A stretch of DNA of 64,000 nucleotides from assembly GCA_965242895.1 (NCBI GenBank), contig OZ251507.1, positions 2,592,286-2,656,285 on the forward strand, written 5' to 3'. A program made the position numbers and the translations under genes. Below the pieces are notes generated by a model. The model did no database searches and was not told the origin of the DNA. It saw only the letters and a list, made by a program, of their open reading frames with translations. The DNA comes from Acidimicrobiales bacterium (GTDB lineage: Bacteria; Actinomycetota; Acidimicrobiia; Acidimicrobiales; CATQHL01). Positions 1 through 21,303 of this stretch are shown piece by piece; position 1 is the stretch's first letter, and each line of letters opens with the position of its first letter.

Positions 1-1754
1 CTTCAGCGGCGGATGTTGAAGCCTGTCAGGAAGCAGCCGAACTTGCAGCAACTGGGTGGAGACCTGTCGGCAATCTACCGCCCAGAGGAAAAGGGTTGGG
101 GTTCAGGGTTCAGGCTTATGGCTTTGAGAAGTGGTGGCAGTTGTTCACCGACCGTCAACTCATAGCCCTCACCACGTTTTCAGATCTCTTAGCTGAGGTG
201 CATAAACGGGTGGTTATCGATGCTGCTTCTGCAGGTTTGGCTGAAAAGGGGAAGCACCTGAGGGATAAGGGATCAGGTGCTGTCGCTTACGCCGACGCGG
301 TTGTGACATATTTGGCTTTTGCTCTCGATAAGTGCGCCGACTACTGGTCGAGCATCTCCACTTGGGACAAGTCGGGTGAGAAAATTGGGCACACTTTTCC
401 GCGTCAAACTTTATCGATGTCTTGGGATTTTTGCGAAGCCAACCCTTTTTCATCTTCGACTGGAAACTGGATGTCAATGGTCAATCGGGTAGCAAAAGCG
501 CTCGAAACTTTACCTTCGGCAGGGACGGCAGAAGTATGGCAACAGGATGCGCGAATCCTGATACACAGTACAACTGGAGTGGTAATTTCCACCGATCCTC
601 CCTATTACGACAACATCGGTTATGCGAATATCTCCGATTTTTTCTATGTTTGGCTGCGCCATAACCTTGCCGATGTCTGGCCAGATGAGTGCGCCACGCT
701 GTTATCGCCGAAAGTTGGCGAACTCATTGCTGATTCGAGTCGTCATGGGGGTAAGAAAGAAGCGAGAGAACATTTCGAGTCGGGGATGGGCGAGTTCATG
801 GCTGAAGTTGCGGCATCGCAGCATCCTGATGTGCCTGCCACTATCTACTACGCATATAAAGCCACGGAAAATACTGAAGATGGTGGCGTGCGTTCGACAG
901 GTTGGGACACTTTTTTGCAAGCTGTGATTGATTCCGGACTTCAAATCACTGCTACTTGGCCTCTGCGTACAGAACGACAAATCAGATTAAATTCCATAGG
1001 CTCCAATGCTCTCGCTTCCTCGGTCGTTCTGGCCTGCCGTCCTCGCCCGGCGTCGGCTGCTCTCGCTACTCGGAGTGAGTTCATTGCCGAGCTTCGTGAC
1101 AAACTCCCGTTAGCAATCAAGGTCATGCAGTCCGGCAACATTGCTCCCGTCGACTTGCCGCAGTCGACCATAGGGCCTGGCATCAAAGTGTTCTCCGGCT
1201 ATGCCAAGGTTGTTGAGGCCAGCGGTATGCAGATGTCGGTGAGCGACGCTTTGGCGCTCATCAACGAGGTGCTCGATGATGTTCTTCATGGGGAGGAGTC
1301 TGAACTCGATTCCGACACTCGTTTCGCTTTGGCTTGGTATGCGCAGCACGGTTTTGAGCCAGCCCCGTTCGGAGACGCTGATTCCATCGCTCGAGCCAAG
1401 AACACTTCTGTGGAGGGTGTAGTCAGGGCGGGCGTCGGGGAGACCTCTGTCGGGAAGTTCCGCCTTTACCGCCGCTCGGAGTTGGATGAGGACTGGGATC
1501 CCACCAGCGACAGCAGGCTGACTGCCTGGGAAGCCCTTCAGCACTTAGCGGCGCGCCTGGAGCGCTCGGAGTCGCAGGCCACTGATTTGTTAGCACGCCT
1601 AGGAAACACCGGTGATGGCGCCCGCCAACTCGCCTACCTCCTGTACAAGATCGCTAGCGACAACCGATGGGCGGAAGAAGCACTCACCTACAACAACCTG
1701 ATAGCTGTCTGGCCGATACTGCGAAATAAGTCGCAACTTGAATTAGGGATCTAG
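1..1754 (+). CDS. DUF1156-family (COG1743-type) DNA methyltransferase, tandem paralogue 1; 5' end lies upstream of the window
   Basis: The frame is open from nt 3 (SAADVEACQEAAELAATGW...). It is collinear with roughly the last 580 residues of the next two genes. It has motif IV TDPPYYDNIGYA and the shared C-terminal tail RLERSESQA..RQLAYLLYKIA..WAEEALTYNNLI. The ORF-track start at 96 is only an in-frame TTG. Confidence 0.85.
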   Translation, partial: SAADVEACQEAAELAATGWRPVGNLPPRGKGLGFRVQAYGFEKWWQLFTDRQLIALTTFSDLLAEVHKRVVIDAASAGLAEKGKHLRDKGSGAVAYADAVVTYLAFALDKCADYWSSISTWDKSGEKIGHTFPRQTLSMSWDFCEANPFSSSTGNWMSMVNRVAKALETLPSAGTAEVWQQDARILIHSTTGVVISTDPPYYDNIGYANISDFFYVWLRHNLADVWPDECATLLSPKVGELIADSSRHGGKKEAREHFESGMGEFMAEVAASQHPDVPATIYYAYKATENTEDGGVRSTGWDTFLQAVIDSGLQITATWPLRTERQIRLNSIGSNALASSVVLACRPRPASAALATRSEFIAELRDKLPLAIKVMQSGNIAPVDLPQSTIGPGIKVFSGYAKVVEASGMQMSVSDALALINEVLDDVLHGEESELDSDTRFALAWYAQHGFEPAPFGDADSIARAKNTSVEGVVRAGVGETSVGKFRLYRRSELDEDWDPTSDSRLTAWEALQHLAARLERSESQATDLLARLGNTGDGARQLAYLLYKIASDNRWAEEALTYNNLIAVWPILRNKSQLELGI

Positions 1755-1774
1755 CAAAGGCCTGTTGTCCTACA

Positions 1775-1874
1775 GGAACGGGTAGCTAATTCCGCTGAGG
1801 GCACGGAAGTGTAAGCGGGCGTCACGCCCGTCGAAGTTGCCATTCTGGAACGGGTAGCTAATTCCGCTGAGGGC
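1775..1874. repeat. Direct duplication with exact 72-bp period in the inter-paralogue spacer
   Basis: GGAACGGGTAGCTAATTCCGCTGAGGGC occurs at 1775-1802 and 1847-1874. A degenerate third copy (GGACAGGGAAACTAATTCCGCTAAGGGC) is at 4999-5026 in the next spacer. Confidence 0.9.
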
Positions 1875-1994
1875 GTGAATAGGGCACTCGATGAATGGGC
1901 GGTGTTCGTGAGGTCTTCTAGGGGACAACTTCTTGTGGGTCGTCATTGCGTCTAGTCGCAAGCAACAGAATGCTCAAAGTCTTAGAGTTGCAAG

Positions 1995-2125
1995 GTGAAT
2001 GACTTTCAAGCGCAAGTTGATCGAAGAGGCAGATGCCGCTGAGAGTGACATGGTGAGGGCGTGAACGTCTCTAAGCCGAAGTTGATCGGGGTGGCGGATA
2101 CCGCTGAGTGTGGCAAGGTGAGAGT
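1995..2125 (+). repeat. Two degenerate tandem copies (~65-bp period) of the methyltransferase start region upstream of paralogue 2
   Basis: GTGAATGACTTTCAAGCGCAAGTTGATCGAAGAGGC starts at 1995. GTGAACGTCTCTAAGCCGAAGTTGATCGGGGTGGCG starts at 2061. Both mimic the real start GTGAACGTCTATAAGCCGAAGCTGATTGAGGTGGCG at 2126. The 2061 copy opens a 22-codon uORF (VNVSKPKLIGVADTAECGKVRV) whose TGA (2127-2129) overlaps the GTG at 2126. Confidence 0.8.
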
Positions 2126-4966
2126 GTGAACGTCTATAAGCCGAAGCTGATTGAGGTGGCGCTGCCCCTCCATGCGATCAACAAGGCGTCGGCGCGGGAG
2201 AAGTCGATCCGGCATGGGCATCCGTCGACGCTGCATTTGTGGTGGTCGCGGAAGCCTTTGGCGGCTTGTCGGGCTGTGCTGTGGGCTTCGTTGGTGGATG
2301 ACCCGTCGGCGCACCCGGACAGGTTTCCGACCGAAGAGTCTCAGGTCGTGGAGCGCAAGCGCTTGTTCGGAATCTTGGAAGACTTGGTGGTTTGGGAGAA
2401 CAGCAACAATACGGATGTGCTAGCCGAGGCTAAGGCTGAGGTTGAGCGGTGTTTCCCAGGCGGGCCGCCGGCGGTGCTCGACCCGTTTGCCGGGGGTGGC
2501 TCCATTCCGTTGGAGGCTCAGCGGCTGGGGTTGACGGCGTTGGCCGGCGAGTTGAATCCGGTGGCGGTTTTGATCAACAAGGCGATGCTGGAGTTTCCGA
2601 CGCGTTTCGCAGGGCGACCGCCGGTGCATCCTGAGGCCAGAAGTGCTTCCAGCACGGGGAGCAGGGGGCGGGGGCGGCGTTCGGATCGATCCGAGGGCGC
2701 CGAGGGTGCTGATAGTGATTTCACCATGTGGAGCGGGGCGCAGGGGTTGGCTGCTGACATCAGGGCTTACGGGGCTTGGATGAGGGACGAAGCTCAGCGC
2801 AGGATCGGGCACTTGTACCCGGACGCTGTTGGCCCTGACGGGGAGAAGTTGACTCCGATTGCGTGGATTTGGGCTAAGACTGTGCGGTCTCCTGACCCAG
2901 CGTGGGAGGGGCATGTGCCGTTGGTTAGCTCGTGGACGCTTCGTAAGGCGATGCGAGGCAAGCCCGAGGTGTGGGTGGAACCGATCGTGGACAAGGCAGC
3001 TCAGAGTATTTCTTATCGTGTGAGAGAGGGCAGTGCCCCGCCGACCTTAGAACGCACTGTCAATAGGGGGAATGGGGTTTGCGTCGCCACTGGCGCGGCG
3101 ATTCCGGTGAACTACATAAGAACCGAGGGGCAGGCGGGGCGCATGGGTGCACATCTCTTGGCGGTCGTGGCTGAAGGGAATAGAAGACGTCAGTATTTTG
3201 AATCTTCAGCAGCGGATGTCAATGTCTGTCAGGCAGCAGCCGAACTTGCAGAGACTGGCTGGAAGCCTGCCGGCAACCTACCCCCCCGAGGAAAAGGGTT
3301 GGGGTTCAGCGTGCAAAACTATGGCTATGAGAAGTGGTGGCAGTTGTTCACCGACCGTCAACTCGTGGCCTTGACCACGTTTTCTGATCTCTTGGGTGAA
3401 GTCCGTGAACAGGTTCTTGATTGTGCGAGATACGCCGGTCTAGCAGACGATGGGGTTCGACTGCGGGACGGAGGAGCGGGTGCGGTCGCCTACGCTGACG
3501 CGGTTGTGACCTACTTGGCGTTCGTGGTCGATAAGTGTGCCGACTACTGGTCGAAAGTTAGTACTTGGATTAATTCCCGCGAAACAATTAGAAGTACGTT
3601 CGTACTGCCTGTCATCTCAATGTCTTGGGATTTTGCTGAAGTCAATCCGTTTTCTTCGTCTACAGGCAATTGGCTGGGACAACTAGAGTGGGTGTGCAGG
3701 GCTGTTGAGCGCCATCCGGCGAGAGGTGATGCGGAGGTTGAGCAGAAGGATGCTCGGGTAAGGACACAAGAATCAGTCGGGTGTTTGATCTCAACAGACC
3801 CTCCCAATTACGACAACATCGGCTATGCGGATATCTCCGACTTTTACTATGTGTGGCTGCGTCGTAACCTCGCTGATGTCTGGCCGGATGAGTGTGCCAC
3901 GCTGTTGTCGCCGAAAGTTGACGAACTAATCGCTGATTCCAGTCGTCATGGGGGCAGGAAGGAAGCTCAAGAACACTTCGAGTCGGGGATGGCCGAGTTC
4001 ATGGCTGCGGCTGCGGCATCGCAGCATCCTGATGTTCCTACCACTATTTACTACGCCTACAAAGCTACGGAAACTTCAGAAGAAGGCAGAGTGCGTTCGA
4101 CAGGTTGGGACACGTTCTTGCAGGCAGTAATCGATGCCGGTTTGCAAGTCACTGCTACTTGGCCTCTGCGAACAGAACGACAAATCAGATCACATTTCTT
4201 TGGTTCTACTGCCCTCGCTTCCTCGGTTGTTCTAGTTTGTCGTCCTCGCCCGGCGTCGGCTTCTCTCGCTACTCGAAGCGAGTTCATCGCTGCGCTTCGT
4301 GAAGAACTCCCGCGGGTGATCAAGCTCCTGCAGTCTGGCAACATTGCTCCCGTCGACTTGCCCCAGTCGACAATCGGCCCTGGCATCCAAGTGTTCTCCC
4401 GCTATGCCAGGGTTATCGAGGCCAGCGGTACGCGGATGCCTGTGAGCGACGCTTTGGCAATCGTCAACGAGGTGCTCGACGAGGTTCTCCACGGGGAGGA
4501 AACCGAGGTGGACGCTGAAACTCGCTTCGCCTTGGCTTGGTACACGCAGCACGGCTTCGAAGCCGGCCCGTTTGGTGGATTTGGTGGAGCGGAGTCCGTA
4601 GCTAGGGCAAAGAACACTGCCATTGAAGAGGTGATCAAAGCTGGGATAGGTGAAGCCACCGCTGGGAGGTTCCGTCTGTACGCTCGTTCGGAACTCGATC
4701 CCGACTGGGATCCCTCAAGCGGCACCAGTCTGATTGCTTGGGAGGCGCTCCAGCATTTAGCGGCGCGGTTAGAAAGGTCGGAGTCGCAGGCGGCTGATTT
4801 GCTTGCGCGCCTAGGAAGCACCGCCGACGGCGCCCGCCAACTCGCCTATCTCCTGCACAAGATTGCTAGCGGCAACCGCTGGGCGGAAGAAGCACTCACC
4901 TACAACAATCTCATAACTGTCTGGCCGATACTAATGATGTTTCCACGTGTGCAACTGACACTTTAG
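2126..4966 (+). CDS. DUF1156-family DNA methyltransferase, tandem paralogue 2 (motif IV reads DPPN instead of DPPY)
   Basis: N-terminus is VNVYKPKLIEVALPLHAINKASAREKSIRHGHPSTLHLWWSRKPLAACRAVLWASLVDDP (DUF1156 signature). Motif I is DPFAGGGSIPLEAQRLG. Motif IV is STDPPNYDNIGYA. The ORF track starts at GTG 2108; I prefer GTG 2126 by alignment with paralogue 3 (MSTYRRKLIEV). Confidence 0.85.
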   Translation: MNVYKPKLIEVALPLHAINKASAREKSIRHGHPSTLHLWWSRKPLAACRAVLWASLVDDPSAHPDRFPTEESQVVERKRLFGILEDLVVWENSNNTDVLAEAKAEVERCFPGGPPAVLDPFAGGGSIPLEAQRLGLTALAGELNPVAVLINKAMLEFPTRFAGRPPVHPEARSASSTGSRGRGRRSDRSEGAEGADSDFTMWSGAQGLAADIRAYGAWMRDEAQRRIGHLYPDAVGPDGEKLTPIAWIWAKTVRSPDPAWEGHVPLVSSWTLRKAMRGKPEVWVEPIVDKAAQSISYRVREGSAPPTLERTVNRGNGVCVATGAAIPVNYIRTEGQAGRMGAHLLAVVAEGNRRRQYFESSAADVNVCQAAAELAETGWKPAGNLPPRGKGLGFSVQNYGYEKWWQLFTDRQLVALTTFSDLLGEVREQVLDCARYAGLADDGVRLRDGGAGAVAYADAVVTYLAFVVDKCADYWSKVSTWINSRETIRSTFVLPVISMSWDFAEVNPFSSSTGNWLGQLEWVCRAVERHPARGDAEVEQKDARVRTQESVGCLISTDPPNYDNIGYADISDFYYVWLRRNLADVWPDECATLLSPKVDELIADSSRHGGRKEAQEHFESGMAEFMAAAAASQHPDVPTTIYYAYKATETSEEGRVRSTGWDTFLQAVIDAGLQVTATWPLRTERQIRSHFFGSTALASSVVLVCRPRPASASLATRSEFIAALREELPRVIKLLQSGNIAPVDLPQSTIGPGIQVFSRYARVIEASGTRMPVSDALAIVNEVLDEVLHGEETEVDAETRFALAWYTQHGFEAGPFGGFGGAESVARAKNTAIEEVIKAGIGEATAGRFRLYARSELDPDWDPSSGTSLIAWEALQHLAARLERSESQAADLLARLGSTADGARQLAYLLHKIASGNRWAEEALTYNNLITVWPILMMFPRVQLTL

Positions 4967-5148
4967 TTTCGCGCCGAGTAAGAACCTGTTGCCACACTGG
5001 ACAGGGAAACTAATTCCGCTAAGGGCGAGAATGGGGGGCGATGCGTTGGCGGTGCTCGCGAGGTCTTCTAGGTGGGTAACTTCTTGCAGGTTGTCATTGC
5101 GTCTAGTTACGGCAACGTGATGCTCAAAGTCTTAGAGTGGCAAGGTGA

Positions 5149-8070
<2,922 letters not shown>

Positions 8071-8323
8071 ACGGGTTCTAGAGGTCGAACGGGGACATCG
8101 AACCCCGTCGGAGGCTAGGCGCCCAAGGTCGAGGAAACTCCCGATGTTCTAGACCGCAGGCCGTTCTTGGTCTGATCGGCCAAGGCGCCTGCTGGGGGTA
8201 TCCGGCCTTGCTCGCTACCGATACTTGTGCAAGGAGTTGTCGGCGATGGGGGGTATCAAGACATCTGCCTATGGCCGTGCTAGCGCTGGCAGCCCATCGA
8301 TTTGCTTGATGAAACGCAAAGTA

Positions 8324-8352
8324 TTGCGATAGTTACACTTTTCTTTGATAGT
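8324..8352 (+). promoter_or_regulatory. Putative sigma70-like promoter of the XRE-ImmA gene
   Basis: TTGCGA (8324-8329), then 17 nt, then GATAGT (8347-8352), in an AT-rich stretch. A purine-rich RBS AAGAAGGGG lies 7 nt before ATG 8387. This is a pattern match only. Confidence 0.3.
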
Positions 8353-8386
8353 ATGTAAATAATGCCACAAAAAGAAGGGGCTACAC

Positions 8387-9622
8387 ATGGAAAATTTACA
8401 TACAACACTTATGAGAGCACGAGAGCGAATTGGTTATTCACAAGAAGCAATTGGAGCCGCGCTCGGAATCAGCCGAGCCATGGTTTCTTACTGGGAGACA
8501 GGCAGCCGCAAGCCGAACGACCGCCAACTCAACGCCCTTGCGCGCCTTTACGAAGTGGAGTTGGCCGATCTGCTGGCGGGCCGCAACATTGAACCGGCGG
8601 GCGCAAACCTTGCTGAGCTGATGTTACGCGCCAATGGAGGAGTCGACCCTGCTTCGTCGCCGGGTATCCATGAGTTTGTTGGTTTCCTGGAACGCCACGC
8701 TGAACTAGCGGAGATGTTGCAACTGCCTATTCGCGGCATGCGAGAAAGTCCGTTCACATTTCGGGAAGAATTCTCGGCAAAGAGTGATATAAGCCGAAAG
8801 GCCGAGGAAGTGCGCGCACATCTTCGCCTTGGCATTGCGCCTATTTATGACCTCGACGTGATATGTGAGACATTGGGAATAACGCTCTACAGGGCGTCTC
8901 TTGGAGGAGACTTGCGCAGGTTTCCGTCAGGGGCGTTCCTAAAGCACCCCGAGGTGGGGTTTTCAATTCTTGTGAACTTAGACATGACGCCAGGGCGCCG
9001 TCGTTTTACTATCGCACATGAACTTGCGCACGCTCTCTTCCACAGTCACGACAACCCTGCGCTGGTTTCGCAGACGGGCGCCTCAGGCGCCTCAAGGGAG
9101 GCGTTCGCTGACGAATTTGCGGGCGAATTCCTTATGCCTAGAGAGGGAGTTCGTCAATTCATGGAGAGGATGGATATGCCGCGGCGTGTGAGCGACCCCG
9201 TGGAAGCAATCCACATTCAGCGGTATTTCCGCGTTTCATGGGCGACAACACTTGTGCGGCTATATCAGATGAACACACTCTCCGAAAGCGATTTTCAGCA
9301 ATTTAGAAGAGAAGTGAAGCCGGTGTTTCTAGCGCGTTCTCTGGGATACGAGATATATCCGGAAGAACTCAAGCAATTCCCCGAACTTTGGACACTCCGC
9401 AGATTTCCCAGGCTGTTCCTACGCATGCTGCGAAAGGCGGTTCGTGACGAGATGATGTCGATCTCGACAGCGGCATCGTTTGCTGGTCTAGCCGTGCCTG
9501 ATGTCGTCAACCTCATCGGAGGGCCAGGGTCAGGTGCTAGCGAAACCGAGGTGAACGATCACGCTGTTGAGTTTGAAGAATACGAATCAAGCGACATAAT
9601 CTCGTTCGCACAGGCTGCGTAG
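8387..9622 (+). CDS. XRE-family HTH fused to an ImmA/IrrE-type (COG2856, M78-like) zinc metallopeptidase domain
   Basis: The N-terminal HTH is LMRARERIGYSQEAIGAALGISRAMVSYWETGSRKPNDRQLNALARLY. The HEXXH motif is in FTIAHELAHALFH, followed by ADEFAGEFLMP. Confidence 0.8.
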   Translation: MENLHTTLMRARERIGYSQEAIGAALGISRAMVSYWETGSRKPNDRQLNALARLYEVELADLLAGRNIEPAGANLAELMLRANGGVDPASSPGIHEFVGFLERHAELAEMLQLPIRGMRESPFTFREEFSAKSDISRKAEEVRAHLRLGIAPIYDLDVICETLGITLYRASLGGDLRRFPSGAFLKHPEVGFSILVNLDMTPGRRRFTIAHELAHALFHSHDNPALVSQTGASGASREAFADEFAGEFLMPREGVRQFMERMDMPRRVSDPVEAIHIQRYFRVSWATTLVRLYQMNTLSESDFQQFRREVKPVFLARSLGYEIYPEELKQFPELWTLRRFPRLFLRMLRKAVRDEMMSISTAASFAGLAVPDVVNLIGGPGSGASETEVNDHAVEFEEYESSDIISFAQAA

Positions 9623-9818
9623 ATTATGGGCGAATTACTTGCCCCAAGAGATGAGAGACAAAGGCTTCTGGGATACTGAGCCGCCTTTTCCAGGCGCCGG
9701 AAACTGAGTAGCCTGTTGCCATATGAATCTGGAAACTAAAGGGCAACGCCTGGGCTCGCATCCAGTTTCGAAAAAGAAAGATTCGCAGAACTAGCTGACA
9801 GCATAGGGGAATCAACAG

Positions 9819-12800
9819 ATGGCAACGATGACCAACAACGCAAGGGTCGCAAAAGCGCTCGAATTATTGCGCGACGGGCTAGCGCCCAAGTGCGAAGAGA
9901 CATGGAAGGGGTTCTACGGGGGCGGCTGGCTGAAGACCGTCAACCGCATGCAGCGCACACAGGCTCACGATCCCTCCACAAGCGATGTGTCCTTCCTGCT
10001 TAACGCGATCAAATCCACTTGGGATGAAGTGTTTTCACATGGCTTCCCGAGGGCGGTGCTCTCCCTGGTTTTTGAAGCGGCGACGGCGCGCAATCGATGG
10101 GCGCACCAGGAACAGTTCTCCAGCGACGACACCAATCGTGCGCTGGACACCATGGAGCGCTTGCTCGATGCGTTCGGCAATGTCGAGCAGCAGCAACAGA
10201 TGCGCAGTCTGCGGCGTGACCTGATGCGCCGCGTCTTTGAGCAGGAATCGCATAACGAGCGTCGCAAAGCTTCCGCCAAACCCACAGAGGGGGAGCCTCA
10301 AGGGGGGCTGACGCCATGGCGAGAGATCATCACCCCGCACGAGGACGTGCGTTCAGGGCGTCTCAACCAGGCCGAGTTTGCAGCTGACCTGCACGAAGTC
10401 GCCTCAGGTCGGGGCGAGGAGGAATACGGAGACCCTAAGGCGTTCTTTGCTCGAACCTACATGACCAGGGGTTTGGAAGACCTTCTAGTGGGGGCTGCGC
10501 GGCGTCTCTCCGGCGGGGCCGGCGAACCGGTCATTCAGCTGCAGACCAACTTCGGAGGCGGTAAGACGCACAGCATGATCGCCCTCTATCACCTCGCTTC
10601 CGGTGTTCCGCCCAGTGAGTTGCCCGGGGTGGGGGAGTTGCTGTCCGGTGAGAACTTGACGCTGCCATCGGAGATCAGCAAGGCCGTGCTAGTGGGTCAT
10701 AAAATCTCGGTGTCCACGCCAGAGACGGAGGACATGGAGGGGAGAACGCTTCCCGACGGCATCAGGCTGCACACGCTCTGGGGCCACTTGGCTTATCAAC
10801 TCGGCGGGAAGGAAGGTTACGAACTCGTTCGAGCCGACGATGAGGCTGCAACCAACCCAGGTGACTCCCTTCGGGCTTTGTTCACCCGGTTCGGCCCTGC
10901 CGTGGTGCTCATCGACGAGTGGGTTGCCTACGCCCGTCAACTTCCTGACGGAGGGTCGGGGTGGCGTGCGCGTGAGGCGGGAGGCGATTTCGACACGCAA
11001 TTCACCTTCGCCCAGGCGCTCACCGAAGCGGCGGCTGCGGTTTCGAACGTGGTTGTGCTTATCACAGTACCGGCTTCCGACATCGAGGTGGGAGGTGAGC
11101 TGGGCAGGTCTGCCTTGGCACGGCTGGAGAACGTGGTCAGCCGCACGGCTAAGCAGTGGCAGGCGGCCTCGCCTGCGGAGTCCTTCGAGATCGTCCGTCG
11201 GCGGCTATTCGACGAGATTGCAGCAGACAAGGTGAAGATGCGCGACGCCGTGATCGCCGCTTTCAGCAAGTGGTACGGCGACAAAGCGAGAGCGCCCGAT
11301 TTTCCCATCGAGGTCAAGGAAGCGGAGTACCGGCGCAAGATGGAAGCTTGCTATCCCATCCACCCCGAACTCTTCGACCGGCTGTTTGGGGATTGGTCTA
11401 CCCTCGACAAGTTCCAGCGCACCCGCGGGGTTCTGAGGTTAATGGCCCTGGCTATCTCCGAATTGTGGAAACGGGGCGACCAGTCTCTGCTGATAATGCC
11501 TGGCAACCTGCCGATGGACTCGGGGGTGTTGGTCAGCGAGATGACGAAATACCTGGAAGATGGCTGGGACCCGGTTATCAAGACCGACATCGACGGTGAA
11601 GGTTCCCTCCCGCTCCGTCTTGACAGGGAAAATAAACACTTCGGGCGTTATTCCGCCGCCCGCCGCGCAGCCCGCACCGTTTATATGGGTTCTGCACCTG
11701 GGGGAGAGGGTATAGAAGGTGGGGTGCAACGCGGTATCGACCTCAAGCGGGTGGTGTTGGGTTGCGTCCAGCCGGGTGAGCCGCCTAACCAGTTCGTCGA
11801 CGCTCTCAGGCGGTTGTCGGGGTCGGATGCAGCCACGTATTTGTATGTGGACGGCGCTTCGTACTGGTACTCGCGGCAGATCAACGTCGCGCGTCTGGCT
11901 CGAGACAGGGCAGAGGGATATCTTGACAGGGACGCCGACGAGGAGGTGCGGAAACGGATCGAAAGGCAGTCCGGTCGGGGGAGGAGAGGAAGTTTCTCTG
12001 CAGTACAGGTGTTTGCCGAGGGGCCGGGGGACGTGCCCGACGATGACGACGGTGTGAGACTCGTGGTCTTGACCCCCGAGAAGACCCACTCGAGGGGTGA
12101 CGAGCATTCTCAGGCGTCTGGCTTAGCGGGGGAGATATTGAACCAGCGAGACGCCGGACCGAGGCTGAATCGCAACATGCTGGTGTTCACGGCGGCGGAC
12201 GCAAACCGTCTGATAGACCTGCGCGCAGCGGCAAAGTCTTTCATGGCGTGGAAGTCGATAGACGAAGAAGCCGAGACTCTGAACCTGACCGCCCACCAGA
12301 ACAAGCAGGCCGATACCAAGTCCAAGGAAACCGACGAGCAGGTTGAAAGTCAGATCGCGGAGACTTTCATCCTAGTGCTCACCCCTAAGGGAAAGCCAGG
12401 CACTTCGGAGATCGATTGGCAGACCACCCGCGTGTCGCCGAGCAGTAAAGAGAGGTGGCTGGCAGCGCGTGTGAGCAGGAAACTGGAGAGCGAGGAGAAA
12501 CTGATCTCCACCTACGGAGGGGTGCGGGTGAAGATGGACTTGGATCGTTTCAAGCTGTGGTCGGAGCGGGGCGACCTGCAAGTGCGGACGCTCTGGGAGA
12601 AGTATGCGAGATTCCTGTATATGCCCAGGCTGGCCTCTTTGAAGTTCCTGCTGGAAGCAGTAGGCGATGGGCCGGGGAGCACGATGTGGAGGGAGGAGAC
12701 CTTCGCCTACGCCGAAGCCTGGGACGAGCAGAGGGAGACCTGGGTAGGAGTGCGCTCCGGTGCGCGGGCGAATGCGAACATAAGCGGATTTGTGGTGCAG

Positions 12801-13205
12801 AGCGAGCGCCTGCCGTTACCAGAAGAGGCGGATGCGCCTGGAGCGCTCTTCCCCGGCGCCGACGAGGGTGCGTCTGGAGCGGCCGTGCCAGGGGAGACTC
12901 CTGGAACGGTCGCCCAAGCCGGAGGACAGGGTTCGAACGTCCAGCAAAAAATCCTAACTGTGCCCCAAAAACCCAAGCTGACAAGGTTCTACGCCCAATT
13001 CGACCTAGACTCCACCCGCCCCATCAAGCAGCTAGGCGAGATACTCGAGCACGTAACTCACCACCTAGGGTCAGACGTGGAGTTGTCGCTAGAGATAAAT
13101 GCCAAGAGCCCCGAAGGCTACGACGACAACACCCGACGAGTAGTCTCGGAAAACTCCATCCAGCTAGGAGCAAAAGGCGCCGAATTCGAAGACCAAGAGG
13201 AGTAA
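9819..13205 (+). CDS. DUF499-family P-loop ATPase with N-terminal Swt1-like HEPN domain
   Basis: The HEPN Rx4H motif is in ATARNRWAHQEQFS. Walker A-like motif is TNFGGGKTHSM and Walker B-like motif is AVVLIDEWVAY. The large size and the position next to DUF1156 genes fit the known DUF1156/DUF499 pairing. Confidence 0.75.
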   Translation: MATMTNNARVAKALELLRDGLAPKCEETWKGFYGGGWLKTVNRMQRTQAHDPSTSDVSFLLNAIKSTWDEVFSHGFPRAVLSLVFEAATARNRWAHQEQFSSDDTNRALDTMERLLDAFGNVEQQQQMRSLRRDLMRRVFEQESHNERRKASAKPTEGEPQGGLTPWREIITPHEDVRSGRLNQAEFAADLHEVASGRGEEEYGDPKAFFARTYMTRGLEDLLVGAARRLSGGAGEPVIQLQTNFGGGKTHSMIALYHLASGVPPSELPGVGELLSGENLTLPSEISKAVLVGHKISVSTPETEDMEGRTLPDGIRLHTLWGHLAYQLGGKEGYELVRADDEAATNPGDSLRALFTRFGPAVVLIDEWVAYARQLPDGGSGWRAREAGGDFDTQFTFAQALTEAAAAVSNVVVLITVPASDIEVGGELGRSALARLENVVSRTAKQWQAASPAESFEIVRRRLFDEIAADKVKMRDAVIAAFSKWYGDKARAPDFPIEVKEAEYRRKMEACYPIHPELFDRLFGDWSTLDKFQRTRGVLRLMALAISELWKRGDQSLLIMPGNLPMDSGVLVSEMTKYLEDGWDPVIKTDIDGEGSLPLRLDRENKHFGRYSAARRAARTVYMGSAPGGEGIEGGVQRGIDLKRVVLGCVQPGEPPNQFVDALRRLSGSDAATYLYVDGASYWYSRQINVARLARDRAEGYLDRDADEEVRKRIERQSGRGRRGSFSAVQVFAEGPGDVPDDDDGVRLVVLTPEKTHSRGDEHSQASGLAGEILNQRDAGPRLNRNMLVFTAADANRLIDLRAAAKSFMAWKSIDEEAETLNLTAHQNKQADTKSKETDEQVESQIAETFILVLTPKGKPGTSEIDWQTTRVSPSSKERWLAARVSRKLESEEKLISTYGGVRVKMDLDRFKLWSERGDLQVRTLWEKYARFLYMPRLASLKFLLEAVGDGPGSTMWREETFAYAEAWDEQRETWVGVRSGARANANISGFVVQSERLPLPEEADAPGALFPGADEGASGAAVPGETPGTVAQAGGQGSNVQQKILTVPQKPKLTRFYAQFDLDSTRPIKQLGEILEHVTHHLGSDVELSLEINAKSPEGYDDNTRRVVSENSIQLGAKGAEFEDQEE

Positions 13206-13259: not shown

Positions 13260-14081
13260 TCATTGGTCAAAATCAAGTAGGGTATTCTGCAGAGATTTTG
13301 GAGGCCAAAAAATTCCCAGAATCAAAAAAGATTTAGGGTGGATTTTTTGGTTGCCAACAAAAAGGACTGTGTCGCGGTCGTCAGACCATATCTCATCACA
13401 AAATTTCTTTTGCATCTTTTGTTTCCAGTCATTCGCATTCTTTACTTTCCTATACAAAGCAGAAATCTCCCAGTCGACGATGCTCTGCTCATGGCTTTTG
13501 CATTCTGGAGCAAGACAATAATATTTATACTTAAATTTCCAGGGTCTAAATTCGAGAGGTATTGCTTTGCTAGCTGGAGTATCGAAAAGATCTTGCTGGC
13601 CGGTGATTGACTCCAATTTTGTTGTAAAAGCACGCTTTTCCTTTTCGGTTCGTTTGGAGATAAGTAGCTTTGGTTTTTCCTTGGCCCTAACGATCGATAG
13701 TGAAGGCCTGGATTTTCCTGTTTTAGACGTAGCACCTTTCCTCAGGTCGCACATAGTAAACTCATCAAGTTGTTGCACTCGCTCACGACGTAGTGCCCAA
13801 TTCTTTGCGTCAATCAACTTACCAGTTTTTATTGTGTCAAGAATAGGGGTTCGAGATTCTTGCCTCGTGTCATCTCTTGGACGCGTCACCTCTAACTCGA
13901 TTTCCTGATACTTCTTGAATTTGGATTCATCGTCCAGATCACGGAACGGGGTCGGGAAAAGACGTATCCATTTTGGTTTTTCGTCAAGGGTCATACCTGC
14001 CACACATACGGCTTCTTCTTTGGAGGCCAAGATAGGAGCAGCTTTGACGAGTATCATCAATTTAAGTTGTTCGCTAGTCAT
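13260..14081 (-). CDS. Hypothetical protein (273 aa), family not recognised
   Basis: Clean AT-rich ORF. Features: LFPTPFRDL, KYKYYCLAPECKSHEQSIVDWEISALYRKV, a C-terminal FVGNQKIHPKSFLILGIFWPP, and possible C-x3-C-x2-H metal ligands. Confidence 0.6.
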   Translation of the reverse strand: MTSEQLKLMILVKAAPILASKEEAVCVAGMTLDEKPKWIRLFPTPFRDLDDESKFKKYQEIELEVTRPRDDTRQESRTPILDTIKTGKLIDAKNWALRRERVQQLDEFTMCDLRKGATSKTGKSRPSLSIVRAKEKPKLLISKRTEKEKRAFTTKLESITGQQDLFDTPASKAIPLEFRPWKFKYKYYCLAPECKSHEQSIVDWEISALYRKVKNANDWKQKMQKKFCDEIWSDDRDTVLFVGNQKIHPKSFLILGIFWPPKSLQNTLLDFDQ

Positions 14082-14487: not shown

Positions 14488-17400
14488 TCAATCGATATCT
14501 GACCCCTCTTCTTCAGGTGCGATTTCGAGCCCTCGTTCACGAAGAGCAGTTTCTAAGCGCTCGTACTCGGGCGTCCCGCTGAGTTCTTGAGCCGATTCGA
14601 GGGCTTGACAAGCGTAGTCATTTGCTCTGGACATTGTGTCCAGAGAGTTGTTTACACGAATCAAATAGTTGAATATCTCTAAGCAACTTTTCTTGTCCTC
14701 AAGCTTTAGTGCTCGTTCTGTGACCTGGCGTTCCGCATTGATGTGGCCGCCAGTTAATTTCAGAGTTTCTAAAGTTCGTCTAGCCCATTGTGCGTCGTCT
14801 ATAGAGAATACTTCGGAATACCAACCGAAGCCTCTAAGATGCTTCGGTTCCTTCAGTTCTAACACCTTGCCCCAAAAGCAGTCGGCGATCCTGGCCATTT
14901 TGTGTCTTTGAGGGTCGATTACGGCTCGCAGGTATTTCCCAATTCGTTCGCCGGCGTAGGAGATTGCCGTGATTTCTCTCTGCCATGGGGCGGCAGGATC
15001 TGGTAATTTTCTTGCTGTCTTCGGAGGAACTTGATCGAGAAAATCGATAACTCCTTTGACAGAGTATCCCTCGTGTTCTCGAAGCATGCCCACTAGATAA
15101 TAGAACAAAGATTCCGGGACGTGCCTCTTGACGGAATTTTCGATCATCTCTCTGTAATTCCTAAACAGCCAGTCGCTCGGCTGCCCTCTACTGAAGGTCT
15201 GCTCAACGGTTCGTTGAGCGAGCCCGTCGGGGGCATGCTCACCGAATATTAAATCACGCGTATTCTCAAGCCATTCTGGCGCTAAGTGCTCTAGCCAGTC
15301 CAGAGTAGGGGCGATGATCGCTCGGCACTCAATGCCATCCTGTCCGCCAAGTTGTAGGCAGTCTTCCAGAATTTGGAGAGTTTCTGGTCGTACAATCTTG
15401 AATTTGTTGTATTCGTATCTTGAAAAGAACAATAGTGAAAGCAGGGCATAGGTGCATGTGCGGTCGAAAGCAATTCTGAACGTATCGAGGCGAAGATCGG
15501 AATACATCCTTGATGGTTCTGAGCGATCCTCGATTTGCTGTTTTAGTATGTTCCATACTCTGTCTCGGCGATTTCCATAACCGATTTCCGAATTGGCAAG
15601 GACGTCGATAAGTTCGATACTGGCACGCTTCGTTTTGTTCCAGTTTATGTCGTAGTCGGACTGACTATTCCCGAGCGGCTCGACATCCTGGGGCTCACTA
15701 TAAATCGTTTCGACAAAGTCAATCAGTTCAGCAATTTGTTGGTCGCTGGGTTTAACATTCCCATTGTTGATCGCTGATGCAATTCCACTAAGATAGTGGT
15801 GAATATAAGTGGGGTGACGGAGTGTTTCCAGAATACTCTGAGGAGACTTCAACCATTCGTTTGGACTTGCCTGTACCGTCGAAAGGAGTGCGGCTCCTAG
15901 TTCGTGGGGAGTCTGGACGATTTCCCGATCTGACTGCGAAGAGACCTTAGGTCTCCAAGCGGCGATTAGTGAAGCTGCTTCTTCGGGGGCAAGCTTCTGC
16001 AATTCTTCAGCACTGAATGGGCTTGTAGTCATGAAATATTCTGTTTTGAAGGCGAACTCAAGGTCGTGCCGGTTGTGCGGCAAATGCAGTTTTGCCAACT
16101 CTTGGAGCGCCAGTTCCCAGTCTTGGCGGAGGTTGTCCAACAGCTTCTCGTTCTGGCTTGAATCTTCTGTCAGTATGTTGACCCAGTCCAGCTTTCTGCG
16201 CCATTCATCGGGTATGAAGTTTTCTGATATCGCATCTTTGATTTTTTCCGAATTCGGAGCATCATCCAGCGCTTCGTTCCAAATAGGGGCGAATTCGCTG
16301 TTTTCGCAATCTTTTACAATGCGATTAAGTAGCGATATGTGGTCGCCAGTAACCTTGTGGGATTTGATTGCTTCAGCGATTTCCCTGATGCGTGTTCCAT
16401 TCTGGGCGCTGTCGGAAGTAGCGAGAAGCCAAGCTCGAACTCGCTGCTGCATGAAAGGTGGCAGTTCGGATAGGCTTTCAATTAGCTCTTCGGCTGTAGT
16501 CCAGGATTGGGACTTTTGAAGGATTGTTAGCAGACCGTTCAGTAGAACTGAGAAAAAACCATTGTAATCAGTCCTGCGAACACTTACCTCACCCTCAGTG
16601 GCCTTGTAATCACTTACTGAGCCTTCTTGAAAGTGTTCTAGCCTGCGACGTGTGCGCTTGTTTTCAGGAACGCCCTTAAGTTTGTAACAGATAAGTTCAG
16701 TTCGCGTGGCATAGTTAGATTCAGTAATGCCTTCAGCGAATGCCTCTATCAATTTGGTGTTATTGTGCAGCGACATAGAGTCTTCAATAAATCTAGGTGG
16801 GTTTGGACTGACTAATTTGTCAAAGAGATTTGTCAGCAAGTTACTTGCGGGTTCGGCCTTCGCAGAAGCCCAATATCCTAGTTCGACGATCTCTGGCCTC
16901 GCCGGAAAGTTCAAAACAGCTTTTAGCACGATGGGCAGAGCATCTGCTCCTATATGAAAGGCGCATAGGGTGATATGCCAGATTGTTTCGTGCTCGTTCT
17001 TGTATTTTTCAAGTAATGTGTCGAGCAGGTCAACTATCTCGGTAGGGAATTCTTGATACAGGTTTTTAAGTGCGTAAGATGCCGGCCAAAATTCTCCAGG
17101 AGGTCCAGGTCTATATATTGGTGGATCGATTATGTCGGTTTCTAGCAGTACTTTAAGCCAATCCAAAGAAGACAGATGCTCAAAAAAATGTCTGTAGTGA
17201 GTCGCCGTAACAGCGTATTGCCGCAGTTGCTTAATGTCATCTTCAGTTGGCGCTTCGATCCTTGCTAACGATTCCAATTTGCGAATTCGCTTTGCTGGCG
17301 GCATGAATAGTGCTTCGAATGCTTTCAGACACTCTGACCATTTAGCTTGAGTTTCTTGAAGGGTTGCTTCAGTATGAAGTTGGTGGTTGAGCTCTTTATG

Positions 17401-17913
17401 TACTGCAATGAAGTGTTTTAGGGCAGGGGTTTTATCCTTTGGAAGATAACTTGTTCGAGCCTCAATAATATTTTGCAATTTCCTATAATCAGTGTCTTTG
17501 GTTTGGAATTTTCTTAGCTCATCGAGACTTTTTCGGAAATTGTCGTATGCTTCTTCTTTATTTTGTTGAGAATCGTAACGGGCACTTTCAGATTTATGTT
17601 GAGCTGAGGCGACCTTGCGCGTAAGTTGTCCTATGGTGGGCGTTTTTTGGGCATGCGGGAGGGTGAGAAGCTCTTCGGGGGCTTCCAGCAGAGCAGTCAT
17701 TGCTTGGCGTAAAGAATATGCGACCAGTTCAGCAGTACTGGGTGCTGCCAGTTCAACAGTGCTGGGTATAGTCGCATTATTCATTTCTAAGAGCACCTGT
17801 GCAGTTCCCAAGAATACACTTGCCCTCTTGCCCATATCCCCGAATTCTTCTTCAAGGTGAGTTAGGAATTGAGGATCAAGCTTTTTCAGTATTGGTTTTG
17901 CGATTGTTTTCAT
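14488..17913 (-). CDS. Large all-helical protein of unknown family, paralogue 1 (1,141 aa)
   Basis: Collinear with 21857-25234 and 26350-29718. Shared blocks include HITLCAFHIGADALP, ELICYKLK, FFS[IV]LLNGLLTIL, DEWRRKLDWVNILT and ADCFWGKVLE.K.PKHL.GFGWYSE.FSIDD.QWA.RTLETL.LTGGHIN. I found no Walker A, HExxH or other catalytic motif. Confidence 0.8.
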   Translation of the reverse strand: MKTIAKPILKKLDPQFLTHLEEEFGDMGKRASVFLGTAQVLLEMNNATIPSTVELAAPSTAELVAYSLRQAMTALLEAPEELLTLPHAQKTPTIGQLTRKVASAQHKSESARYDSQQNKEEAYDNFRKSLDELRKFQTKDTDYRKLQNIIEARTSYLPKDKTPALKHFIAVHKELNHQLHTEATLQETQAKWSECLKAFEALFMPPAKRIRKLESLARIEAPTEDDIKQLRQYAVTATHYRHFFEHLSSLDWLKVLLETDIIDPPIYRPGPPGEFWPASYALKNLYQEFPTEIVDLLDTLLEKYKNEHETIWHITLCAFHIGADALPIVLKAVLNFPARPEIVELGYWASAKAEPASNLLTNLFDKLVSPNPPRFIEDSMSLHNNTKLIEAFAEGITESNYATRTELICYKLKGVPENKRTRRRLEHFQEGSVSDYKATEGEVSVRRTDYNGFFSVLLNGLLTILQKSQSWTTAEELIESLSELPPFMQQRVRAWLLATSDSAQNGTRIREIAEAIKSHKVTGDHISLLNRIVKDCENSEFAPIWNEALDDAPNSEKIKDAISENFIPDEWRRKLDWVNILTEDSSQNEKLLDNLRQDWELALQELAKLHLPHNRHDLEFAFKTEYFMTTSPFSAEELQKLAPEEAASLIAAWRPKVSSQSDREIVQTPHELGAALLSTVQASPNEWLKSPQSILETLRHPTYIHHYLSGIASAINNGNVKPSDQQIAELIDFVETIYSEPQDVEPLGNSQSDYDINWNKTKRASIELIDVLANSEIGYGNRRDRVWNILKQQIEDRSEPSRMYSDLRLDTFRIAFDRTCTYALLSLLFFSRYEYNKFKIVRPETLQILEDCLQLGGQDGIECRAIIAPTLDWLEHLAPEWLENTRDLIFGEHAPDGLAQRTVEQTFSRGQPSDWLFRNYREMIENSVKRHVPESLFYYLVGMLREHEGYSVKGVIDFLDQVPPKTARKLPDPAAPWQREITAISYAGERIGKYLRAVIDPQRHKMARIADCFWGKVLELKEPKHLRGFGWYSEVFSIDDAQWARRTLETLKLTGGHINAERQVTERALKLEDKKSCLEIFNYLIRVNNSLDTMSRANDYACQALESAQELSGTPEYERLETALRERGLEIAPEEEGSDID

Positions 17914-18281: not shown

Positions 18282-18743
18282 TTAAACGGGCAGGATTTCC
18301 GTTGCCGGGTTGAGCGCTTGGATGTTGTCGGTTATCACCGAGCGGTGGCATTCGGAGTGTTCCCGCTCGAAGCAGAGGAGCGCCACACGGTGTCTAGCCA
18401 TTAACTCGAGTATCGATTCAAAGGCCTCTTTCGAGCCGTTCAGCAGCAGATGCTCGTAGCGCTTTCTTGCCGTTTCTGACCCGTTTTGAAATCCGTCTCG
18501 GTTATCCCGAGGATTGCCCAAAGACGGCTCGTGCCTGTAAACGATCCCTCTCTCGCCGAGAGCCTCCGCAAGTGCCTTTTTCGAGAATCCTTTCTTGCGG
18601 GAAATAGGGGTCAGTCTGACATCCACGAGGATGTCAATTTCGCTGTCAACAAGTCGGGTGAGAAAGTCTTCCAAGCAAAGCCCTTGATACCCAGCCGAAA
18701 AGATGGTTCCGCCGGCTCCGTCGTTCCCGATCTCCGGCGGCAT
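18282..18743 (-). CDS. DUF488 family protein
   Basis: TIFSAGYQGLCLEDFLTRLVDSEIDILVDVRLTPISRKKGFSKKAL and ALLCFEREHSECHRSVI match the DUF488 signature as I remember it. Confidence 0.75.
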   Translation of the reverse strand: MPPEIGNDGAGGTIFSAGYQGLCLEDFLTRLVDSEIDILVDVRLTPISRKKGFSKKALAEALGERGIVYRHEPSLGNPRDNRDGFQNGSETARKRYEHLLLNGSKEAFESILELMARHRVALLCFEREHSECHRSVITDNIQALNPATEILPV

Positions 18744-19115: not shown

Positions 19116-19493
19116 ATGGCCAAGAAGCGTGTGTTCGTGAGCTTTGACTACGACAACGACAAAGATCTCAAGGAGTTATTGGTTGGACAAGCGAGGAACC
19201 CTGATTCCCCATTCGAGGTTATCGATCATTCTCTGAAGGAGGCTCAGCCAGAGAAGGACTGGGAAGAGAAAGCCGAGATGGCTATCAAGCGTGCGGAATT
19301 CTTCATTGTGATGCTCGGCTCTCGCACAAGGTGGGCATCTGGGGTACTTAAAGAGGTGAAGATTGCTCAGAAACTCAATAAGAAGAAATTTCAACTAATT
19401 GGCCGTCCAGAGGGATCTGAGTCGTGGGCTGTGCCAGGAGGTGGAAGGACTTACAGGTGGGCATGGCCGAATCTCAAGAATTTGTTGAGCTAG
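19116..19493 (+). CDS. TIR-like domain protein (DUF1863 / MTH538-type, ThsB-like)
   Basis: MAKKRVFVSFDYDNDKDLKELLVGQ... then FFIVMLGSRTRWASGVLKEVKIA. RBS AAAGGTAGG lies upstream of ATG 19116. The ORF-track start at 19005 is probably too early. Confidence 0.7.
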   Translation: MAKKRVFVSFDYDNDKDLKELLVGQARNPDSPFEVIDHSLKEAQPEKDWEEKAEMAIKRAEFFIVMLGSRTRWASGVLKEVKIAQKLNKKKFQLIGRPEGSESWAVPGGGRTYRWAWPNLKNLLS

Positions 19494-19510
19494 AAGAAAG
19501 GCAGTCTGTG

Positions 19511-20680: not shown

Positions 20681-21303
20681 TGGATAATGGGGGTATGACC
20701 TCATTGGCTGGCAGCCATGTCTTCCTCTCAGCAAGTTTCCCTTCTGGCGAGAGGGGGCGGCAATTTGAGCCTTACAGCGCTCCCGCGATCGCTGACGCCG
20801 TTTCCGCTGTCGTGCGTGCCGTGCTGCGTAGTGAAGGCAAGTTGCTATTCGGCGGGCATCCGACGATCACTCCAATGGTTCTGCTGAATGGCTACGAGCT
20901 AGAAGTTGAGTGTGCTGTGGATATCTTTCAGTCGGAATGGTTTGAGGGCAGCATTACTGAAGAAACTCGCCAATTGATGGAATCAGGGGTGGGGGAAATC
21001 CATTGGACGGAAAAGAAAGACACACGGGAAAACAGTCTTGAGACAATGCGTAATGAGATGTTCAATTTCGTGCAGCCCGCAGGTGCTGTCTTCGTCGGGG
21101 GCATGGAAGGTATCCCGCTCGAATACGAGATGCTCGGCCGTCTCTGGCCAGACGTCCCGAGGGTTCCTCTTGCCGGTCCAGGCGGGGCGGCGGCCGACTT
21201 GGAGATCGATGAAAGTCTGCCCGAAGAACTCGCAGAACGCGTGAACTCACGGCAGTACCCGTTCTTGGCGTCTCTTATCGTGGATGCGTTGGCTGGCAGA
21301 TGA
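20680..21303 (+). CDS. SLOG/LOG-like Rossmannoid nucleotide-binding protein (putative)
   Basis: Two glycine loops typical of SLOG/LOG folds: KLLFGGHPTITPMVL and AVFVGGMEGIPLEYEML (GGxGxxxE-like). The start is GTG 20680, overlapping the upstream TAG, or ATG 20695. The stop overlaps the next gene's start (ATGA at 21300). Confidence 0.55.
   Translation: MDNGGMTSLAGSHVFLSASFPSGERGRQFEPYSAPAIADAVSAVVRAVLRSEGKLLFGGHPTITPMVLLNGYELEVECAVDIFQSEWFEGSITEETRQLMESGVGEIHWTEKKDTRENSLETMRNEMFNFVQPAGAVFVGGMEGIPLEYEMLGRLWPDVPRVPLAGPGGAAADLEIDESLPEELAERVNSRQYPFLASLIVDALAGR

Follow-up and report, generated by a model that had tools for sequence, protein, structure and literature searches.

The 64,000-nt stretch of Acidimicrobiales contig OZ251507.1 analyzed here (assembly GCA_965242895.1; hereafter the window, numbered from its first nucleotide) opens inside a tandem array of hmaB genes, which encode the DUF1156 DNA methylases of a helicase-methylase-ATPase (Hma) defence system. 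At least three, and probably four, old and intact methylase paralogues accompany a single ATPase gene, hmaC, and the third of them carries a perfect, in-frame (AG)21 tract. Together, the array and the tract suggest that the cell can switch several DNA-recognition specificities separately. In the reading we favor, to which we give about an even chance, the HmaB copies would be alternative, individually phase-variable specificity subunits sharing one ATPase and one helicase. The Hma family itself is known; judged computationally, from consensus sequences of metagenome-assembled genomes, its multi-methylase, tract-bearing architecture is new.

Five consecutive genes on the + strand occupy positions 1-13205, as seen from the open reading frame (ORF) listing and translation: three hmaB genes, a gene for a fused XRE-ImmA protein and a gene for a HEPN-DUF499 protein. 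PADLOC named HmaB three times, and HmaC, among their products. The features of the locus are as follows (aa, amino acids).

3-1754, + strand: HmaB copy 1, open frame from nt 3 to the stop at 1754; the C-terminal 583 residues are visible and the gene starts upstream of the window
594-605, + strand: motif IV of copy 1, DPPY
2126-4966, + strand: HmaB copy 2, likely extent (GTG start, 946 aa); the longest ORF spans 2108-4966 (952 aa)
2480-2503, + strand: motif I of copy 2
3797-3808, + strand: motif IV of copy 2, DPPN
5218-8070, + strand: HmaB copy 3, likely extent (ATG start, MSTYRRKLIEV, 950 aa); the longest ORF spans 5149-8070 (973 aa)
5572-5595, + strand: motif I of copy 3
6101-6142, + strand: perfect (AG)21 dinucleotide tract in copy 3, in frame, encoding (RE)n
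6901-6912, + strand: motif IV of copy 3, canonical DPPY
8387-9622, + strand: fusion of an XRE-type helix-turn-helix (HTH_3) and an ImmA/IrrE metallopeptidase (Peptidase_M78), 411 aa, by Pfam
9017-9031, + strand: HELAH motif of the XRE-ImmA protein, intact
9819-13205, + strand: HmaC, HEPN_Swt1 and DUF499 AAA+ ATPase, 1128 aa, by Pfam (PADLOC HmaC, E 7e-271)
10089-10106, + strand: HEPN Rx4H motif of HmaC (RNRWAH), intact
10554-10568, + strand: Walker A of HmaC (GGGKT), intact
10905-10922, + strand: Walker B of HmaC (VLIDEW), intact

The PADLOC HmaB model matched the partial copy 1 with E 9e-202 and copies 2 and 3 with E = 0, and Pfam DUF1156 matched copies 2 and 3 with E 1e-29 and 7e-31, respectively. 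The likely GTG start of copy 2 at 2126 is preceded by AAGGTGAGAG. On these profile matches, the locus is an Hma system, otherwise known as a Type-1, DUF499-centred BREX-related (BR; BREX, bacteriophage exclusion) restriction-modification-like system, with the helicase HmaA unseen in the window. Hma/BR systems have been reported in more than 3500 taxa, and the HEPN fusion to DUF499, present in 1370 of 2446 taxa, is given as a Type-1 trait in PMC12839542. A single HmaC follows the array. Searches of PDB sequences with HmaB and HmaC returned no matches.

A search of a 15-billion-protein collection placed the array in its contig. The full-length product of copy 1 is protein P0122 (913 aa), whose C-terminus is identical to the window translation; the product of copy 2 is identical to P0121, and HmaC is identical (100%) to P0001 of the same contig (2,781,752 nt). 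Also, this contig encodes, outside the window, a fourth HmaB paralogue, P0130 (948 aa), so that the array has at least three copies and, with the one found likewise on the contig, probably four. While copy 1, copy 2, the fourth paralogue and HmaC are all present in the collection, the exact protein of copy 3 is absent from it, no match above 71% identity being returned; perhaps the public annotation calls the gene differently at the (AG)n tract, or a filter removed the protein.

An earlier reading of the same DNA, made from the letters and ORFs only (the sequence-only reading), had proposed three head-to-tail, collinear DUF1156 methylases followed by an XRE-ImmA gene and a HEPN-DUF499 ATPase. 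The first part is supported by the ORFs, by Pfam for copies 2 and 3 and by PADLOC for all three, and the second by Pfam, PADLOC and the intact motifs; the tentatively offered name helicase-methylase-ATPase also proved correct (PADLOC HmaB/HmaC; PMC12839542). The signatures quoted as shared by the three genes are real in copies 2 and 3, while for copy 1 the N-terminal signature and motif I (DPFAGGGS) lie off the window, and the motif IV pattern TDPP[YN] resolves into DPPN, confined to copy 2, and DPPY in the other two. Two expectations had to be corrected. DUF3780, offered as a frequent partner, is a marker of Type-2 (MANTIS) and not of HEPN-fused Type-1 systems (PMC12839542), and it gave no Pfam match among the locus ORFs scanned; and the Hma helicase family is not DEAD/DEAH but Swi2/Snf2 with a C-terminal nuclease. 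The sequence-only reading did not include the (AG)21 tract of copy 3, the matching poly-G tracts of relatives or the extension of the array past the window edge to a fourth paralogue.

The three window copies are 72-76% identical in protein and 71-76% identical in DNA sequence in pairwise comparison. Their pairwise synonymous divergence (dS) is 0.9-1.7 and the ratio of nonsynonymous to synonymous divergence (dN/dS) 0.12-0.19, with no internal stops. Judged by these values, the duplication is ancient and every copy is under purifying selection, and the copies are therefore neither an assembly artefact nor the product of general decay. Each has insertions and spacers found in no other copy. No two copies share an identical stretch longer than 41 nt, which argues against recent gene conversion. 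Between motifs I and IV, divergence peaks in two stretches, aa ~300-350 and aa ~450-560. PMC12839542 describes the target-recognition domain (TRD) of the methylase as an insert after core strand 2, and the two peaks fall inside that insert.

Three meanings had been suggested for the additional methylases, namely several specificities, a spare-copy reservoir for recombination, or decay. Decay was rejected, as all copies are intact with the dN/dS given above and the frameshifted relatives described below need only a 1-nt change in a tract. A cassette reservoir or recent gene conversion was rejected too, on the 41-nt longest run between head-to-tail copies and on the failure of any recombinase or integrase family to match among the 27 window ORFs scanned with Pfam. 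An inversion shufflon was likewise discarded: all copies are direct and no recombinase was found, no locus contains a minus-strand HmaB match, and the spacers hold no inverted repeats. Of the three meanings, the evidence favors several specificities, which we infer to be distinct.

In order to gain insight into how common such arrays are, copy number was surveyed by a scan of one genome per species and a metagenome scan, followed by tblastn, giving roughly 97 related loci. The closest matches reached at most 69% identity in the genome scan and at most 54% in the metagenome scan. About 90% of the loci have one hmaB followed by one hmaC, in agreement with the earlier statement that one methylase is the norm. 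Tandem pairs occur sporadically (loci L018, L083 and L085), and the larger arrays are confined to a small clade of Acidimicrobiales metagenome-assembled genomes (MAGs) that are the closest relatives of the window (57-69% identity). Multi-methylase arrays are thus not routine for the family and are a recurrent trait of this clade. The BR survey and the Halomonas Hma paper make no mention of methylase arrays, phase variation or ImmA.

In one relative, OZ241998.1 (L001), the gene order is hmaB-hmaA-hmaB-hmaC. In another, CATQHL010000001.1 (L002 and L003), hmaA is followed by five hmaB, an XRE-ImmA gene, two further hmaB and hmaC, that is, seven HmaB for one HmaA and one HmaC. The latter contig also carries orphan hmaB loci, one copy at 1.50 Mb (L005) and two at 0.74-0.77 Mb (L006), with neither HmaA nor HmaC within 10 kb. 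In a neighbor-joining tree, the 16 copies of the clade are monophyletic, the three copies of the window cluster together and neighboring genes of the seven-copy array form sister pairs, a pattern that fits repeated local tandem duplication.

The (AG)21 tract of copy 3 is the only homopolymer of at least 9 nt or dinucleotide repeat of at least 6 units in the 64 kb. With 18, 21 or 24 units, copy 3 encodes the full-length protein; with any other number, translation stops at aa 307-318, making the tract a candidate slipped-strand ON/OFF switch as far as sequence can tell. At the same codon position, relatives have homopolymers of G, namely G17 in L001, G15 and G14 in L002 and G9 in L006, and it is exactly at these four tracts that their reading frames change. 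A second hot spot is motif I, whose Gly-Gly-Gly is encoded as G11, G13 and G10 in three further copies of the relatives. Tracts also occur at 5' ends, with G15 lying 32 nt before one start codon (L006) and C17 plus C13 upstream of another. The two orphan copies in L006, with their G9, G10 and 5' G15 tracts, are one G from full length, and indeed every frameshifted relative regains a full ORF with one G more or fewer. Tract length is therefore their only lesion, which is the signature of a contingency locus and not of a pseudogene; as an alternative, they could be always-ON genes with mis-called homopolymers.

The tracts are also specific to these genes. All ten found in L001, L002, L003 and L006 lie in hmaB or just 5' of it, against a background in other loci of 0.58 per 100 kb. 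Tracts of at least 9 nt are present in 8 of the 16 clade copies versus 2 of 95 other copies (Fisher p = 1e-6; odds ratio 46; ~25-fold by frequency). Tract lengths and frames differ between paralogues and genomes, each being 1 nt from ON, as read from single-assembly MAG consensus sequences in which homopolymer calls are uncertain. Copy 2 has no repeat tract.

The loop that bears the tracts is a fixed 33 aa (…REGGEP..ERTV.RGNGTC…) in over 50 single-copy homologues from Acidimicrobiia. In paralogues of the array clade it has grown: to Gly6 in copy 1 (HGFGGGGGGAFEP in P0122, off the window) and in P0129 (YGGGGGGYEP), to Gly8 in the fourth paralogue P0130 (YGFGGGGGGGGDSY) and to (RE)n in copy 3. 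From these alignments, it looks as if the ancestral GG of the loop seeded the poly-G tracts. The (AG)21 tract falls within a loop of the target-recognition insert. An AlphaFold2 model of copy 3 (overall predicted local distance difference test score 73.6, with the motif I and IV regions below 50) was used solely to place the tract, which forms a low-confidence segment between two β-strands. A Foldseek search of the PDB with this model gave weak generic methyltransferase matches only (E > 0.1). Switching of this kind has precedents: a poly-G tract in pglX phase-varies the actinobacterial Pgl/BREX system (PMC4365076, citing Sumby and Smith 2003), and Type III and Type I methylases switched by repeat tracts are known (PMC5909438, PMC7383803).

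The arrays are also unusual in catalytic motif IV, which reads DPPY in 94 of 94 single-copy homologues and deviates in 4 of the 16 array copies (p = 3e-4, with only three independent events). DPPN in copy 2 of the window stems from a single TAT to AAT change at nt 3806, in one assembly. APPY occurs in L001 and recurs in P0125, from another assembly, and DLPY in a conserved sister pair of the seven-copy array. In N6-adenine methylases with a (D/N/S)PP(Y/F/W) motif, losing the aromatic residue or the aspartate should strongly impair catalysis. Copy 2 is accordingly predicted to be catalytically impaired, and some array members may be non-methylating. The deviant copies could be scaffolds, partners in hetero-oligomers, restriction-only subunits acting under the methylation of a sibling, or recent lesions.

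If the copies are switchable specificity subunits, the system could work as follows. Each HmaB would be an alternative DNA-recognition subunit that methylates its own motif on the host DNA and, together with the HmaC and HmaA that all copies share, also targets for restriction any DNA in which that motif is unmethylated. Replication slippage at the in-frame tracts, that is (AG)21 in copy 3 and poly-G or glycine runs in copy 1, the fourth paralogue and the copies of the relatives, would turn single copies ON or OFF reversibly. Since the same protein would set modification and restriction, an OFF switch would remove both, and no self-restriction would follow. Tract lengths would then vary within populations, and with N switchable copies a population could be a mix of up to 2^N states of defence and methylome. 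That HmaB acts as the specificity subunit, and so directs restriction, is proposed by analogy with PglX in BREX (PMC11341690; bioRxiv 10.1101/2024.04.12.589305) and MtsC in MANTIS. For MANTIS, both specificities, that of hemimethylation and that of restriction, are set by the TRD of the methylase, and swapping MtsC residues 445-527 switches the specificity of methylation and restriction alike (bioRxiv 10.64898/2026.09.23.753747). A TRD that sets both specificities would make switching off a methylase safe.

Several points weigh against this proposal. That the copies differ in specificity is a prediction from divergence in sequence, and the differences in tract length seen so far are between paralogues and between genomes. 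The ON and OFF states of the relatives come from MAG consensus sequences, in which long homopolymers can be mis-called, so that these genes may perhaps be always ON, and the glycine runs of copy 1 and P0130, known from protein only, might be written in mixed GGN codons. If the DPPN, APPY and DLPY copies still direct restriction, the proposal that each copy methylates its own motif fails for them.

Also, the helicase effector was not found in the window. The sequence-only reading had noted no helicase in the 13 kb it saw, and tblastn with a PADLOC-verified HmaA (L002:6178-9789, E = 0) was negative across the whole 64 kb; as the window begins inside the array, this negative does not mean that the locus lacks HmaA. 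The 120 protein matches listed include no HmaA of the source contig, which is likewise uninformative as to its absence. HmaA lies upstream of HmaB in 48 of the 59 related loci with at least 4 kb of upstream sequence, directly adjacent in 31. Because of this position, and because the window opens in the middle of an hmaB gene, the HmaA of this locus is expected beyond nt 1 and is probably located upstream, a possibility that the sequence-only reading had itself allowed for. Lastly, PMC11232893 reports that Halomonas HmaA alone gave defence in E. coli; given this result, a targeting role of HmaB in Type-1 systems would be an extrapolation from Type-2 systems and BREX.

A more specific, combinatorial form of the same idea is tentative, and we consider it somewhat short of an even chance. 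Here, up to seven complete methylase/specificity genes would serve one ATPase and one helicase-nuclease, with slipped-strand switching at the TRD loop and at the motif I glycine codons evolved repeatedly and giving up to 2^N states, and the degenerate paralogues would perhaps be restriction-only or scaffold proteins.

Alternatively, the copies could be redundant and their repeats neutral: tandem duplication in a defence island would have left the array as a by-product, only one copy would matter, and the tracts would be tolerated expansions of a surface loop and the apparent frameshifts homopolymer sequencing errors, with no programmed switching. The tract does lie in a low-confidence loop between two strands where insertions are tolerated, homopolymer lengths in MAGs are unreliable, copy 2 has lost the tyrosine of DPPY, and the junction scars at the 5' and 3' ends described below speak of sloppy duplication. 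However, dN/dS of 0.12-0.19 over a dS of ~1 indicates that every copy was long kept under selection, and a 42-nt perfect dinucleotide tract that shifts the frame with every slip cannot be neutral. Moreover, independent origins of tracts are seen at two hot spots and in 5' regions, and the tracts are confined to hmaB (10/10) and enriched in the clade (8/16 versus 2/95), while the length of the loop is fixed in more than 50 homologues. We regard neutral redundancy as unlikely.

The ON/OFF copies could also be mainly epigenetic regulators of methylation and expression, like the Mod phasevarions of host-adapted pathogens, with restriction secondary or lost. Repeats within N6-adenine methylase genes are the defining trait of phasevarions (PMC5909438, PMC7383803), the orphan loci L005 and L006 have tract-bearing hmaB without HmaA or HmaC within 10 kb, and the nearest relatives are apparently host-associated MAGs. 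Against a purely regulatory role, the array is placed next to an intact HmaC and, in relatives, between it and an intact HmaA, within a dense defence island with CBASS, TIR and PDC genes (CBASS, cyclic oligonucleotide-based antiphage signaling system). As the main function this seems quite unlikely, but it is compatible with defence and does not exclude it.

A further explanation, which we find very unlikely, is that some paralogues (DPPN here; APPY and DLPY in relatives) are catalytically dead and pair with an active copy, for DNA recognition or as a scaffold, in one hetero-oligomeric methylase complex. The array would then encode the subunits of this complex in place of alternative specificities. 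It would account for the non-canonical motif IV in 4/16 array versus 0/94 single copies (p = 3e-4), and the recurrence of APPY in a second assembly (P0125) and of DLPY in a conserved sister pair points to retention and not random decay; copy 2 is also otherwise under purifying selection. Yet the DPPN of the window is a single T-to-A change in one assembly, which may be recent, polymorphic or an error, and copy numbers vary freely (2, 3-4, 7), unlike those of a fixed stoichiometric complex. Mis-assembly of strain variants, expanding one gene to three, is hardly credible: the source is probably a MAG and the exact protein of copy 3 is missing from a collection that holds its neighbors, but the copies are 71-76% identical in nucleotides with unique insertions and spacers, the source contig is 2.78 Mb long, and independent genomes carry homologous arrays with the same XRE-ImmA insertion.

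The junctions between the copies contain further short repeats.

1775-1802 and 1847-1874, + strand: two copies, 72 nt apart, of the exact 28-mer GGAACGGGTAGCTAATTCCGCTGAGGGC, in the spacer between copy 1 and copy 2
2008-2137, + strand: 65-nt tandem duplication of the copy 2 leader and first codons (KLIE...), a junction footprint
5159-5176 and 5231-5248: similar 5' footprint upstream of copy 3
8038-8072 and 8119-8154: duplication of an hmaB 3' end

The 28-mer has two matches where none is expected by chance and occurs nowhere else in the window; it may be a putative operator for the XRE-ImmA regulator or a duplication scar. The same 5' duplication occurs in L001 (2553-2660), with a period of 65-73 nt for the 5' duplications, and a check of 74 single-copy loci yielded none. 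These junction duplications may be scars left by gene duplication, or small upstream ORFs. A scan for promoter and terminator consensus sequences gave counts at or below shuffle expectation. The XRE-ImmA protein resembles regulators of the CapH/CapP and RmrA types (PADLOC matches to RmrA and CapP-like models), has an orthologue (62% identical) inside the seven-copy array of L003 and probably couples expression of the locus to stress or infection.

Downstream of hmaC, the window harbors other predicted defence genes. On the - strand lies a second triplicated family (14488-17913, 21857-25234 and 26350-29718; 1141, 1125 and 1122 aa) with 67-78% mutual identity and no Pfam or PADLOC match. Each member is preceded by a small gene (a DUF488 gene at 18282-18743, and genes at 25236-26027 and 29721-30338), and a PDC-M19B gene (13260-14081) follows the first. 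These look like candidate defence genes, likewise diversified by duplication. A tight cluster on the + strand (19424-21836) encodes a ThsB-like TIR protein (418 aa), a SLOG LD_cluster3 protein (207 aa) and a ThsB-type TIR protein (178 aa). A homologous ThsB-like TIR gene follows HmaC in the seven-copy relative (L003:16816-18009), indicating that the islands are syntenic. In the same relative, a CBASS pair on the - strand (L002 2084-4437; oligonucleotide cyclase and TIR-SAVED effector) lies ~1.7 kb upstream of hmaA, on the opposite strand to it. The array occupies a conserved hotspot of defence genes.

GC content is 42-61% across the island (about 1-32000) versus 60-68% in the housekeeping flank (34000-64000), which encodes ZnuA, an ABC transporter, an enoyl-CoA hydratase, a thiamine pyrophosphate enzyme, an M23 peptidase and NAPRTase. 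Dense short tandem repeats at ~31.5-34.5 kb coincide with the island boundary. Other repeats in the flank are a 73-nt unit present 5.9 times at 45389-45820 and a long GTC-rich repeat (6-, 18- and 96-nt periods) inside the ZnuA-like gene (36263-36658). The 64-kb window contains no tRNA genes, and tRNA-linked integration was rejected on that ground.

The role of the methylase in Hma/BR systems has barely been tested so far. If one ATPase and one helicase-nuclease are programmable by many methylases, this would support the view that in Type-1 systems the methylase sets the specificity of modification as well as restriction. It would also be a cheap route to broaden or randomize immune specificity, in which only the specificity gene is duplicated and a slippery tract added. 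If correct, this would be the first multi-specificity architecture driven by simple sequence repeats in the Hma/BR family, an actinobacterial counterpart of multi-mod phasevarions in uncultured Acidimicrobiales akin to both pathogen phasevarions and the phase-variable pglX of Streptomyces. Binning these MAGs by methylome, or assigning motifs in them, would then run into mixed patterns. Annotators will label such copies pseudogenes though they are one slip from full length. Specificity determinants could also be mapped with the array, whose closely related TRDs form a natural panel.

Among known systems, the locus shares with Hma (PMC12839542; PMC11232893) a DUF1156 N6-adenine methylase with a TRD insert, a HEPN-DUF499 AAA+ ATPase and a defence-island setting, and its relatives show the helicase-methylase-ATPase order. 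It differs from the canonical system, which has one methylase, in having three or more in a tandem array (with a fourth on the contig, and seven in one relative), repeat tracts in some copies, degenerate catalytic motifs in some copies, an XRE-ImmA insertion and no helicase visible in the window. MANTIS (Gao_RL; Type-2 BR; bioRxiv 10.64898/2026.09.23.753747) has in common the DUF499 ATPase, a homologous methylase and a helicase-nuclease; it has one methylase, a DUF3780 co-factor (MtsB) and a PLD-type helicase-nuclease, whereas the present locus is of Type-1 with a HEPN-fused DUF499, and neither phase variation nor arrays are reported for MANTIS.

Multi-hsdS shufflons of Type I systems and invertible pglX cassettes of BREX (PMC7394358, PMC9881135) also provide several specificity modules for one restriction machinery, and population heterogeneity. 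In these, a recombinase is needed to invert DNA at specific sites between partial copies in opposite orientation, unlike the complete head-to-tail copies found here, with no inverted repeats and no recombinase found. Phasevarions are a functional analogue, with simple sequence repeats in the frames of N6-adenine methylases and several independent switchers possible per genome (PMC5909438, PMC7383803 and PMC10123105). They involve Type III mod or Type I hsdM/hsdS genes dispersed over the genomes of mostly host-adapted pathogens, in contrast to a tandem array in one BREX-related operon of Acidimicrobiales. The closest precedent is Pgl, the Type-2 BREX system of Streptomyces coelicolor, in which an intragenic poly-G tract in an actinobacterial methylase/specificity gene switches defence on and off as its length changes (PMC4365076). 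Pgl has a single pglX with one tract, its PglX belongs to a family other than DUF1156 and its partners are PglW, PglY and PglZ, whereas here several paralogues each have their own tract, one of them a dinucleotide repeat.

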